Positions 41,918 to 45,454 of a stretch of 64,000 nt of DNA are shown one piece after another; positions within the stretch are counted from its first letter, which is position 1; every line of letters begins with the position of its first letter. The position numbers and the translations under genes are program-made. The DNA is taken from the NCBI RefSeq assembly GCF_056746865.1, contig NZ_CM163382.1, one strand, 5' to 3'. The notes under the pieces were generated by a model, which had not been told where the DNA came from, ran no database searches, and saw only the letters and a program-made list of their open reading frames with translations.

Positions 41918-42003
41918 AGGCTCCTGTGCAAAAGGGCTGACTGATCTTACCCAGCAATAGTGGACACAGGACTAAGTGAGTAAACTCTTAACCAGGGTGA
42001 CTC

Positions 42004-42303
42004 ATGACAAAACCAGTATCAATCAGCAAGAAGCCCCGTGAACAACATTCGCCTGAATTTCGTAACGAAGCCCTGAAACTCGCTGAACGCATCGGTGTGG
42101 CCGCCACAGCCCGTGAACTCAGCCTGTATGAATCTCAGCTTTATGCCTGGCGCAGTAAACAGCAGCAACAAATGAGTTCGTCAGAGCGCGAAAGCGAACT
42201 GGCCGCTGAAAATGTCCGCCTTAAACGACAACTGGCGGAGCAGGCTGAGGAACTGGCCATCCTCCAAAAGGCCGCGACATACTTCGCGAAGCGCCTGAAA
42301 TGA
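42004..42303 (+). CDS. IS3 OrfA
   Basis: 99 aa [29 protein letters not shown]...[14 protein letters not shown]. Confidence 0.8.
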
Positions 42304-42702
42304 AGTATGTCTTCATCGAAAATCATCGGGCAGAGTTCAGCATCAAAGCGATGTGTCGTGTACTTCGGGTTGCCCGCAGCGGCTGGTATGTCTGGCTCAG
42401 GCGTCGTCACCAGATGAGCCTGCGCCAACAGTTTCGGCTCACCTGCGATGCCGCTGTCCATAAGGCATTCTTTGAGGCAAAGCAGCGATACGGTGCTCCC
42501 CGCCTTGCTGACGAACTGCCGGAGTTCAATATTAAAACCATTGCCGCCAGCCTGCGTCGTCAGGGGCTGCGGGCGAAAGCCAGCCGGAAGTTCAGCCCGG
42601 CCAGCTACCGTGCACATGGCCTGCCCGTATTGGAGAATCTGCTGGAGCAGGACTTCAGCGCCAGCGGCCCGAACCAGAAGTGGGTGGGTGACATCACGTA
42701 CT
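42300..42702 (+). pseudogene. IS3 orfB exon 1, ends at the intron 5' splice site
   Basis: Homology ends after [11 protein letters not shown]; next bases are GTGTG. Confidence 0.75.
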
Positions 42703-44972
42703 GTGTGCCCGGAGTTCAGGGCGAGCATAGACGCTCAAATGAACCACGAGTCTGTCTGGAATATTGAACCGGTAACTCACGATGAGAAACCCAACAATCC
42801 CACCGGGTGTGACGGTGGAGAACCTGAGCGGCAGTGACCTGCGGCATGCCCGCAGGGTGATGTAACCCGCTGACAACGGGGATTGAGGCGAGATCACTAA
42901 GCCGAGATGATCCTCAAGGTTAAGTACTGAAAGGCTTAAGAATATGAACCCGTTAATCCGCCTCTGTGGGTTGAAAACGTCACCACGGCCTACGTGATCT
43001 GACAGGCCGTGCAGGAGGAACTGGCAGTGATACGTAAGCACTGCCGGTCGAAGGTGTTTTGACATGTATGCGAAACTCCGGGGCAGCAGCGTCTATCACG
43101 CTCGCGTTGCTGACTTCTGCCAACTTGCGGCAAGCAAGGATAAAGAGTGCGACGGGCAGCCTCCTCAGTATGTCTGAGTCCAGTCAGGCAAACCGGGGAA
43201 GGTCAGCGACGGATGTTAAGGGGGCATGGCTCCGATGACGCGCTGGCTGGCGGAGCTTCCGTAGTAGTCCGCGATGGGGAAAGCCCATTACATGGCGAAG
43301 GGAAGCAGTTTGAATGTGTCTGCGACGTAAATTAACTGACCTAACGAGGTGAAGACCTTTGATAATCAGCGAAATGCAACGCAAGCTTGCCACATGGGCA
43401 GCCACCGATCCGTCCCTACGGATTCAACGGCTGCTGCGTCTGATAACACAACCAGAATGGCTGGCTGAAGCGGCGCGGATCACGCTTTCATCAAAGGGGG
43501 CGAATACCCCCGGTGTTGATGGCGTGAACAAAACAATGCTACAGGCCAGACTGGCTGTTGAGCTGCAAATCCTCAGGGATGAATTACTCTCAGGCCACTA
43601 CCAGCCCTTGCCCGCCAGGCGGGTTTACATCCCTAAAAGCAATGGCAAACTGCGACCACTGGGTATCCCCGCGTTGCGGGATCGTATTGTTCAGCGGGCC
43701 ATGCTGATGGCGATGGAGCCGATATGGGAGAGTGATTTTCATACGCTCTCATATGGCTTCCGGCCTGAGCGCAGTGTCCACCACTCGATCCGCACGGTGA
43801 AATTACAGCTCACCGACTGCGGTGAAACCCGGGGACGCTGGGTGATTGAAGGCGACCTGTCCAGTTACTTCGACACCGTACATCATCGACTGCTGATGAA
43901 GGCTGTACGCCGCAGGATCAGTGACGCACGTTTCATGACTCTGCTGTGGAAAACCATCAAGGCGGGACATATCGATGTCGGTCTCTTTCGGGCGGCCAGT
44001 GAAGGTGTGCCACAGGGCGGTGTTATATCGCCGCTATTGTCGAACATCATGCTGAATGAGTTCGATCAATACCTGCATGAGCGCTACCTGAGCGGGAAAG
44101 CAAGAAAAGATCGGTGGTACTGGAATAACAGTATCCAACGGGGCCGAAGTACGGCGGTCAGAGAAAACTGGCAGTGGAAACCCGCGGTGGCGTACTGCCG
44201 CTATGCCGATGATTTTGTCCTCATCGTCAAAGGCACCAAAGCACAGGCGGAAGCCATCAGGGAGGAGTGTCGGGGTGTGCTCGAAGGCAGTCTGAAACTC
44301 AGGCTGAACATGGATAAGACTAAAATCACCCATGTTAATGACGGCTTTATCTTTCTGGGGCACAGGATCATTCGCAAACGCAGTCGTTATGGCGAGATGC
44401 AAGTGGTCTCAACGATCCCGCTGGAGAAAGCCAGAAACTTCGCCGCATCGCTGACAGCACTGTTATCAGGCAACTACAGTGAAAGCAAAGTCGATATGGC
44501 TGAACAACTCAACCGAAAACTGAAAGGCTGGGCCATGTTCTATCAGTTCGTTGATTTTAAGGCCAAAGTCTTCAGTTATATCGACCGTGTCGTGTTCTAG
44601 AAGCTGGCTCACTGGCTGGCCCGCAAATACCGTACAAGTATCGCTTCCCTGATGAGGTGGTGGTGTAAATCACCGAAACCGGGTCAGAGCAAAACGTGGG
44701 TTTTATTTGGTAAAACCAATCACGGCAAGCTCAGCGGCGAAATACTGTACCGGTTGGTGGGGCAAGGCAAGAAGCTGTTCCGCTGGCGGCTACCCGAAGG
44801 TAATCCCTATCTGAGGACGGAAACCAGAAAGACGTATACATCGCGCTTTACAGAAGTGGCAATGGCGTTCGCCAGCGTTTAAATGGAGAGCCGGATGCGC
44901 TGAAAGGTGCATGTCCGGTTCGGGGAGGAGAGGCAGGGAAATAGTCCGACTACGCCCTGCCTCTTACTCTAC
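42703..44972 (+). mobile_element. Group II intron (bacterial class), 2270 nt, with intron-encoded protein
   Basis: Starts GTGTG, ends ...CTAC; domain V gagccggatgcgctgaaaggtgcatgtccggttc at 44888-44921; removing it restores the orfB frame (…DITY-LRTDEGW…). Confidence 0.8.
43359..44600 (+). CDS. Group II intron reverse transcriptase/maturase
   Basis: 413 aa; RT motifs (RRVYIPKSNGKLRPLGIP; YADDFV catalytic box) and C-terminal maturase region. Confidence 0.85.
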   Translation: MIISEMQRKLATWAATDPSLRIQRLLRLITQPEWLAEAARITLSSKGANTPGVDGVNKTMLQARLAVELQILRDELLSGHYQPLPARRVYIPKSNGKLRPLGIPALRDRIVQRAMLMAMEPIWESDFHTLSYGFRPERSVHHSIRTVKLQLTDCGETRGRWVIEGDLSSYFDTVHHRLLMKAVRRRISDARFMTLLWKTIKAGHIDVGLFRAASEGVPQGGVISPLLSNIMLNEFDQYLHERYLSGKARKDRWYWNNSIQRGRSTAVRENWQWKPAVAYCRYADDFVLIVKGTKAQAEAIREECRGVLEGSLKLRLNMDKTKITHVNDGFIFLGHRIIRKRSRYGEMQVVSTIPLEKARNFAASLTALLSGNYSESKVDMAEQLNRKLKGWAMFYQFVDFKAKVFSYIDRVVF

Positions 44973-45424
44973 TGCGTACCGATGAGGGCTGGTTGTATCT
45001 CACAGTAGTCATCGACCTATGGTCACGCGCCGTCATTGGCTGGTCGATGTCACCGCGAATGACAGCACAACTGGCCTGTGATGCACGGCAAATGGCGTTG
45101 TGGCGGAGAAGACGCCCGGAAAGCGTCATTGCTCATACGGACCGTGGTGGTCAATACTGTTCAGGGGATTATCAGGCGCTGCTGAAGCGACACAACCTGC
45201 GTGGCAGTATGAGTGCGAAAGGCTACTGTTATGACAATGCCTGTGTGGAAAGCTTCTTTCATTCGCTGAAGGTGGAATGTATCCACGGGGAACGCTTTAG
45301 CAGCCGGGAAATAATGCGGGCAACGGTGTTTAATTATATCGAGTGTGATTACAATCGCTGGCGTCGTCACAGTGCCTGTGGCGGTCTCAGCCCGGAACAA
45401 TTTGAAAACCATAATCTCGCTTAG
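44973..45424 (+). pseudogene. IS3 orfB exon 2 (integrase core C-terminus)
   Basis: [26 protein letters not shown]...[14 protein letters not shown], in frame with exon 1 once the intron is removed. Confidence 0.75.
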
Positions 45425-45454
45425 GGCCGTGTCCACATTACGTGGGTAGGATCA

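Follow-up and report, generated by a model that had tools for sequence, protein, structure and literature searches.

The window analysed here is the whole 64,000 nt stretch of contig NZ_CM163382.1 (NCBI RefSeq assembly GCF_056746865.1), and it includes, at 41942–45454 on the forward strand, an insertion sequence (IS) of the IS3 family, ISEc16, whose orfB gene is split by a 2270 nt insert. Judged on its sequence, the insert is a copy of the known Escherichia coli group II intron E.c.I4, a member of bacterial class A, lying in its usual target site in ISEc16. A reading of the region made earlier from the letters alone (the sequence-only reading) had described a complete intron that looked competent for retrohoming. 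We consider it very probable that this copy is an ordinary non-autonomous, decaying relic of E.c.I4 and not an active mobile element, as the gene for its reverse transcriptase (RT) and maturase, ltrA, carries a premature stop codon within the maturase domain.

ISEc16 and the E.c.I4 intron in its orfB gene

The IS has imperfect inverted ends of the form TG...CA (its termini read TGATCTTACCC... and ...GGGTAGGATCA) and would be 1243 bp long without the intron. The window is part of an E. coli chromosome, the 3.5 kb stretch being 100 % identical to the corresponding sequence in many complete E. coli genomes. The 99 aa orfA (42004–42303, forward strand), which was taken from the list of open reading frames (ORFs), covers the N-terminal part of the model NF033516 and was compared with its counterpart in strain 536, is intact. 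An AAAAG motif (42266–42270, forward strand) lies in the overlap of orfA and orfB, where a −1 programmed frameshift site is expected, and by analogy with IS3-type elements we take it to be the ISEc16 slip site; intact ISEc16 copies carry the RefSeq label 'programmed frameshift'. The first exon of orfB (42300–42702, forward strand) ends one nucleotide beyond the residues W V G D I T Y (GAC ATC ACG TAC T), and the frame is picked up again at 44973 in the second exon (44973–45424, forward strand), which runs to the stop codon. Between them, the insert (42703–44972, forward strand) starts with GTGTG (42703–42707; GUGUG in the RNA) and ends with CTCTAC at 44972, in agreement with the GUGYG and AY boundary consensus. 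When 42703–44972 was deleted in silico, a 1243 bp IS with a continuous 284 aa OrfB was obtained. This OrfB scores 316 bits against NF033516, the model for IS3-family transposases (cutoff 160), and it is the intact, DDE-containing protein that excision of the intron would restore. The bounds of the IS, the position of the break, the length of the insert and its GTGTG start, all given in the sequence-only reading, were confirmed, and its view of one mobile element nested in another is borne out, in that a full-length group II intron RNA lies within an IS3-family orfB.

The host element is, by sequence comparison, ISEc16. The spliced IS aligns in a single piece over positions 1–1243, with 98.7–98.9 % identity, to hundreds of intron-less copies annotated as ISEc16. 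In an explicit alignment, the intron-less ISEc16 of E. coli 536 reads ...GACATCACGTACT|TGCGTACCGATG... through the junction, and the joined exons are the same as the strain 536 sequence for 17 nt on the 5′ side (one mismatch, at −18) and for 29 nt on the 3′ side. Hence, the search for intron-less copies that the sequence-only reading had proposed as a check yielded ISEc16 elements that align straight through the splice junction.

A gap-free alignment of the intron with the copy in plasmid pUTI89 (NC_007941, 30449–32718) shows 98.5 % identity over all 2270 nt. The name E.c.I4 was given by Leclercq & Cordaux in 2012 (PMC3522654), who found this intron at the matching position in IS629, IS911, ISEc16 and ISEc31, and whose supplementary table lists E.c.I4-25 (NC_010498, 3241200–3243470) and E.c.I4-26 (NC_007941, 30449–32719). 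These two entries are the SMS-3-5 and pUTI89 copies that we retrieved for comparison. The SMS-3-5 copy was described as full length, with a disrupted ORF, in a strain-specific genomic island, and as the single full-length E.c.I4 copy of that strain; recent proliferations of E.c.I4 were also reported (PMC3522654). The arrangement was thus already known from the 2012 publication, down to E.c.I4-25, the orthologue of the window copy. Assignment of the E.c.I4 ORF to bacterial class A, which has no recognizable DNA-binding and endonuclease (D/En) region, is that of Toro & Martinez-Abarca 2013 (PMC3552965). A label of 'chloroplast-like' for E.c.I4 was dropped as wrong, the intron being class A according to PMC3552965.

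The closest known relative, E.c.I4-25, occupies the orthologous locus; IS and intron together differ at 8 of 3513 nt, the ISEc16 host and the right flank are the same, and the TAG at codon 409 of ltrA, discussed below, is shared. On the left side of ISEc16, SMS-3-5 still has approximately 3 kb that the window lineage (e.g. strain XDL) has lost. Consensus-type copies, represented by E.c.I4-26 of pUTI89 and the copy in strain S43, resemble the window copy in length (2270 nt), sequence (98.5 % identity), ends, domains and insertion position, and in a protein, assigned to class A in PMC3552965, that has RT and X domains and appears to lack an endonuclease domain. They differ in having an intact 502 aa ltrA, whereas the window copy carries 18 substitutions unique to its lineage, the nonsense codon among them. 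With these copies we place S.f.I1 of Shigella flexneri, which is 99 % identical. K-12 ykfC, in the CP4-6 prophage, is a 1764 nt 5′ fragment of E.c.I4 (98.3 % identity), catalogued as E.c.I4-tr1 (PMC3522654); it is 3′-truncated and without domains V–VI, whereas the window copy is full length. RmInt1 of Sinorhizobium meliloti (class D, in ISRm2011-2) and E.c.I3 (in IS679) are likewise bacterial group II introns with natural homing sites in ISs, RmInt1 also has a protein without an endonuclease, and many copies of both are fragmented or inactivated. These two introns, however, belong to other classes, use other target IS families and are unrelated in sequence, and the likeness is one of lifestyle and not of family.

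The broken ltrA gene and the state of the ribozyme

The sequence-only reading had reported a 413 aa RT/maturase with a YADD box. This ORF (TTG at 43359 to the stop codon at 44598–44600) and the YADD motif of the RT active site (44202–44213, forward strand) are present, but the ORF is a truncated form of a 502 aa ltrA, the in-frame TAG having been overlooked. Intact relatives encode a 502 aa LtrA, that of E.c.I4 having the accession WP_001189113.1, from an ATG that corresponds to position 43374 here, and translation of the ltrA pseudogene (43374–44882, forward strand) from that position gives 408 aa instead of 502. A G-to-A change at 44599 converts Trp409 (TGG) to TAG (44598–44600, forward strand), in maturase domain X. 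Beyond the TAG the frame stays open for 93 more sense codons to the natural stop codon at 44880–44882, just before domain V. Codon 409 is TGG in the pUTI89, S43 and Klebsiella copies, and the aligned G is present in a frame-shifted Salmonella relative; A, and with it TAG, is confined to the window lineage, SMS-3-5 included. In the stop-repaired LtrA, Pfam RVT_1 covers residues 86–332 (E = 4.8e-34) and GIIM residues 356–426 (E = 1.2e-10), and the stop at 409 therefore cuts through the maturase. RefSeq annotates ltrA as a pseudogene, 'internal stop', in strains XDL and SMS-3-5. Competence for retrohoming, as proposed in the sequence-only reading, is not supported: W409* inside GIIM contradicts it, and the gene is a pseudogene in RefSeq and its SMS-3-5 orthologue is catalogued with a disrupted ORF. 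No HNH or other endonuclease domain was found in LtrA by Pfam, the protein ending approximately 75 residues past GIIM, which agrees with class A introns lacking D/En (PMC3552965).

An autonomous mobile group II intron has an uninterrupted ORF for RT and maturase, and in the window copy W409* interrupts it. Bacterial group II introns depend on a maturase for splicing in vivo and, the copy's own maturase being lost, splicing or mobility would require protein from another E.c.I4 copy; no second E.c.I4 RT is found within the 64 kb window. The earlier suggestion that the host transposase would be restored by splicing thus stands as far as precise excision gives an in-frame OrfB, with the proviso that the maturase must come from another E.c.I4 copy.

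Group II introns were recognized by a domain V of approximately 34 nt (with an AGC triad, a 2 nt bulge and a GNRA loop) followed by a domain VI with a bulged branch-point A. When the whole window was searched, the Rfam model RF00029 (group II catalytic intron, domains V–VI) matched at 44886–44972 over its full length (1–77) with 64 bits (gathering score 40; E = 2.8e-10), confirming the domain V proposed earlier at 44888–44921 (forward strand; GAGCCGGAUGCGCUGAAAGGUGCAUGUCCGGUUC, with the AGC triad). Domain VI (44924–44970, forward strand), placed from the Rfam alignment and the consensus fold, contains a bulged A at 44966 that is the candidate branch point and lies at a distance of seven nucleotides from the intron's 3′ terminus. 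A C-to-U change at 44912 makes the domain V bulge AU, where the consensus copy has AC. This change was considered as an inactivating lesion and dropped, as the Salmonella relative also has U there, and so does the plastid domain V consensus; it is probably harmless.

The fold against a covariance model that the sequence-only reading had suggested therefore succeeds for domains V–VI, with domains I–IV left without a matching model: Rfam models for domains I–IV (group-II-D1D4) gave no match at E ≤1 in 42600–45700, where only matches of the domain V/VI type were obtained, and there appears to be no curated covariance model for domains I–IV of class A introns. A consensus fold was built from the intron and its relatives (4–5 relatives; five sequences, 85–98 % identical) and has the general layout expected of such an intron: the 5′ GUGUG is unpaired, domain I is large, there are hairpins resembling domains II and III, and domain IV carries the ORF. 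In domains I–IV, compensatory changes were seen at 5 pairs only, and the long-range helices varied between runs. A single-sequence minimum free energy fold of the ORF-less ribozyme was set aside because two 98.5 %-identical copies gave differing domain I folds.

To place the changes in the window copy, its 34 differences from the pUTI89 copy were polarized using the Klebsiella (90.7 % identity), Yersinia (92 %) and Salmonella (84.6 %) relatives. Of the 34, 16 are common to the outgroups and mostly synonymous where they fall in the ORF, so that the window copy represents a slightly basal E.c.I4 sublineage. The other 18 are unique to the window lineage. Those in the ORF comprise seven non-synonymous changes (H44N, A138S, R343Q, Q350L, W409*, G422S and N486K) and four synonymous ones; they look neutral, the 7:4 ratio being as under relaxed constraint. 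Seven of the unique changes fall in the 5′ part of the ribozyme; at three of these (235, 375 and 482 in intron numbering) a predicted pair becomes a U-C or U-U mismatch, uncompensated.

Distribution of the element and its possible fates

Of 5426 complete E. coli genomes, 1873 carry near-full E.c.I4, in up to 20 places per genome, with 1932 places on plasmids. The 5′ junction of ISEc16 with E.c.I4 is present in 58 complete genomes; in 55 the sequence is ≥99.7 % identical to the window, and in two (S43 and MB06022) it is approximately 98 % identical. The sequence variant of the window occurs only at one locus, and the other E.c.I4 copies in ISEc16 are of the consensus type. The S43 intron is of this type (99.8 % identical to that of pUTI89), with an intact ltrA, and lies at an unrelated locus, and hence represents an independent insertion at the identical ISEc16 nucleotide. 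All 55 genomes with the right flank of the window carry the intron. No intron-less ISEc16 was found at the window locus, all 55 carriers matching the spliced-locus query only at 97–982, i.e. from exon 2 onward.

The account that we favour runs as follows; the identity of the elements, the exon junction, the stop codon, domains V–VI and the spread over genomes are shown by the data, and the loss of splicing and the sequence of events are inferred, as are the EBS and IBS assignments given below. E.c.I4 would have entered ISEc16 by retrohoming, through the usual reverse splicing; as its protein appears to lack an endonuclease domain, replication intermediates probably provided the priming, by analogy with RmInt1. 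W409* would then have removed maturase function, and the copy would have drifted afterwards. The intron most likely keeps the ISEc16 orfB split and the IS inactive, and the composite would be inherited passively within a genomic island.

That the intron is instead intact and autonomous, its own maturase splicing it out and restoring the ISEc16 transposase, is very improbable. The RNA is full length with canonical ends and domains V–VI, the RT domain with its YADD motif is intact, and the family is clearly mobile, as its presence in 1873 genomes and its recent proliferations (PMC3522654) attest. However, TAG at codon 409 deletes the C-terminal 94 residues, the codon is TGG in all intact relatives, the gene is treated as disrupted by both RefSeq and the 2012 catalogue (PMC3522654), and all 55 carriers of the variant have common flanks, placing it at one locus only. 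To the idea that the nesting is an artefact of assembly or recombination, with no true insertion, we attach next to no credence. Though the region is rich in repeated IS and intron sequence and chimeric exon pairs occur elsewhere (loci L009 and L011, described below), the structure is present in 55–58 independent complete genomes, the exons on the two sides both come from ISEc16 and fit together perfectly, and S43 has an independent insertion at the identical nucleotide.

A non-autonomous copy could still be a functional ribozyme, with splicing, and perhaps mobility, supplied by LtrA (98 % identical) from a second E.c.I4 copy in the cell; we regard this as unlikely, though by no means negligible, and some of the observations that speak against a simple relic also favour it. 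The ribozyme still has GUGUG, the AGC triad, the bulged domain VI A and the 3′ AC, so that the catalytic motifs are all present, and no clearly lethal RNA mutation was identified in the intron. The exons are intact and in frame once the intron is excised. The 408 aa product retains the whole RT domain and scores 326 bits against TIGR04416 (cutoff 300). Plasmid-borne E.c.I4 is common, and several carrier chromosomes have additional E.c.I4 or ISEc16 matches (up to 8 places in some carrier genomes), which makes complementation in trans by another E.c.I4 copy possible. The 'helix-breaking' nature of the three ribozyme changes is itself provisional, given a fold from five close sequences in which long-range helices changed between runs. 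Set against a functional ribozyme served by a helper are the seven lineage-unique 5′ ribozyme substitutions, three of which break predicted pairs without compensation, and a candidate pairing with the exon at ISEc16 of only 4/6, with a mismatch at −1. The XDL and SMS-3-5 chromosomes, moreover, have one place each for the junction query, SMS-3-5 having a single full-length copy (PMC3522654). A specific version, which we find rather doubtful, is that helper LtrA, typically from an F-type plasmid, may splice the ORF-dead copy and make ISEc16 a conditional transposon. If this were true, the ISEc16 transposase would be expressed only once a helper intron enters the cell, and the four-level nest described below would record repeated mutual invasion of introns and ISs.

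If, as we think very probable, the copy is a decaying relic, its significance beyond correct annotation is small, as the intron, its DxTY preference and the disrupted ORF were published in 2012. It is nonetheless a clean textbook case of the 'extinction' phase, in which a full-length bacterial group II intron has been inactivated by a nonsense mutation. It also illustrates that a long RT ORF with a YADD motif is insufficient to call an intron mobile, and that comparison with intact relatives is needed.

Target site and history of the locus

In all retrieved copies, the intron lies one nucleotide past the D(I/F/V)TY codons of an IS3-family orfB, and at least five different genes are involved: ISEc16 (window, SMS-3-5 and S43), IS3 proper, IS629-like elements (pUTI89 and others), ISEc52 and two more IS3-family genes. 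Base pairing between exon-binding sequences (EBS) in the intron and intron-binding sequences (IBS) in the exon probably determines which targets are chosen. Domain I was scanned for hexamers complementary to the exon in six target-site types; as the exon positions are also under coding constraint, these target sites are not independent evidence, and the assignments that follow are candidates predicted from sequence. The top hexamer for EBS2 over the six sites was UGAUGU (34/36; runner-up 28) at 42858–42863 (intron 156–161, forward strand), which would pair with exon positions −12 to −7 (ACAUCA) and also suits the targets of the intron's relatives; the candidate IBS2 is ACATCA at 42691–42696 (forward strand) in orfB exon 1. 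The candidate EBS1, CGUAAG (43033–43038, intron 331–336, forward strand), is in the loop of hairpin 318–346, for which compensatory changes are seen at 322/342 and 325/339 in the Klebsiella, Yersinia and Salmonella relatives, and would pair with exon positions −6 to −1, the candidate IBS1 being CGTACT at 42697–42702 (forward strand) in the same exon. At the ISEc16 site, the predicted IBS2-EBS2 pairing is 6/6 Watson–Crick and IBS1 (CGUACU)-EBS1 is 4/6, positions −1 and −5 being mismatched. The IS629-like site, which hosts the pUTI89 copy in that element's orfB, gives 5/6 for IBS2-EBS2 and 6/6 for IBS1 (CUUACG)-EBS1. Because EBS1 pairs at only 4/6 positions there, ISEc16 may be a tolerated secondary target, and the comparison suggests the IS629-like site as the cognate one.

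No target-site duplication was found around ISEc16, the flanks being GAC and CTC here and TAC and CTC in SMS-3-5. The two sides are mutually unrelated, with a truncated ibrB on one side and an old intron remnant on the other, and ISEc16 therefore appears to have taken part in rearrangements. The remnant (45455–45554, reverse strand; 100 nt) was detected as an inverted repeat and by BLAST, and corresponds to positions 19–118 of an E.c.I4-like intron at approximately 90 % identity. It is antisense to the window copy, abuts the right end of ISEc16 and is joined to its own host, an IS911-like (IS3-family) orfA/orfB remnant annotated as a RefSeq pseudogene (45545–46285, reverse strand), which is 93 % identical to IS911 over 46108–46285. 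The CGDVTY codons and the first approximately 18 intron nucleotides are missing from the remnant. An extension by MAFFT to a 'GTGTGC'-like 5′ end was dropped, as the added part translates to ...SVLEAEQVW, with homology to IS911 OrfB, and is hence exon, so that reliable intron homology starts at about position 19.

More of the old intron (332–464, 483–545 and 666–759) survives in SMS-3-5, to the left of ISEc16 (locus L005, 2258–3539), and a 132 bp piece of it was catalogued as E.c.I4-tr2 (PMC3522654). With pieces on both sides, ISEc16 would have inserted into an older intron within an older IS, or come to lie there by recombination. The nest has four levels, namely the IS911-like element, the old E.c.I4-like intron, ISEc16 and E.c.I4. 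Relative to SMS-3-5, the window lineage is missing approximately 3 kb comprising the N-terminal part of ibrB, ibrA (PAPS reductase) and IS and intron debris (L005, 509–3539). The deletion stops precisely at the outermost base of the left inverted repeat (41941/41942) and truncates ibrB, which would agree with a deletion associated with the IS or with recombination involving a second ISEc16 copy since lost. A 10 nt microhomology at its left junction, apparent from overlapping BLAST coordinates, was dropped as only 2 nt (AC) proved to be shared on inspection. In strain XDL, the flanks (locus L001, 1–3000 and 9100–11513) are a patchwork of IS100, IS66 and IS1203 with pseudogenes and sodC, typical of a genomic island gathering mobile-element debris.

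Two of the retrieved copies have chimeric exons (positions 371–400 and 2671–2690 in each locus), L009 being IS629-like on the 5′ side and IS911-like on the 3′ side, and L011 ISEc52/IS911-like on the 5′ side and IS629-like on the 3′ side. Such pairs suggest recombination between intron copies in different ISs. A Salmonella Infantis IncFIB plasmid (CP114004.1; locus L013, 1896–4137) carries the 84.6 %-identical E.c.I4 relative at the same site, of the D-I-I-Y type. Its 5′ end (GUAUA) departs from the consensus, domain I has lost 10 nt and the RT frame contains many stop codons, which makes it a further class A copy in decay. An intact ltrA is present in the Klebsiella copy on an IncN plasmid (L014, 90.7 %). 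Elsewhere in the window, full-length Rfam matches to Hfq-binding small RNAs were found for STnc490 (9246–9367, forward strand; 129 bits) and isrN (31277–31419, reverse strand; 138 bits).

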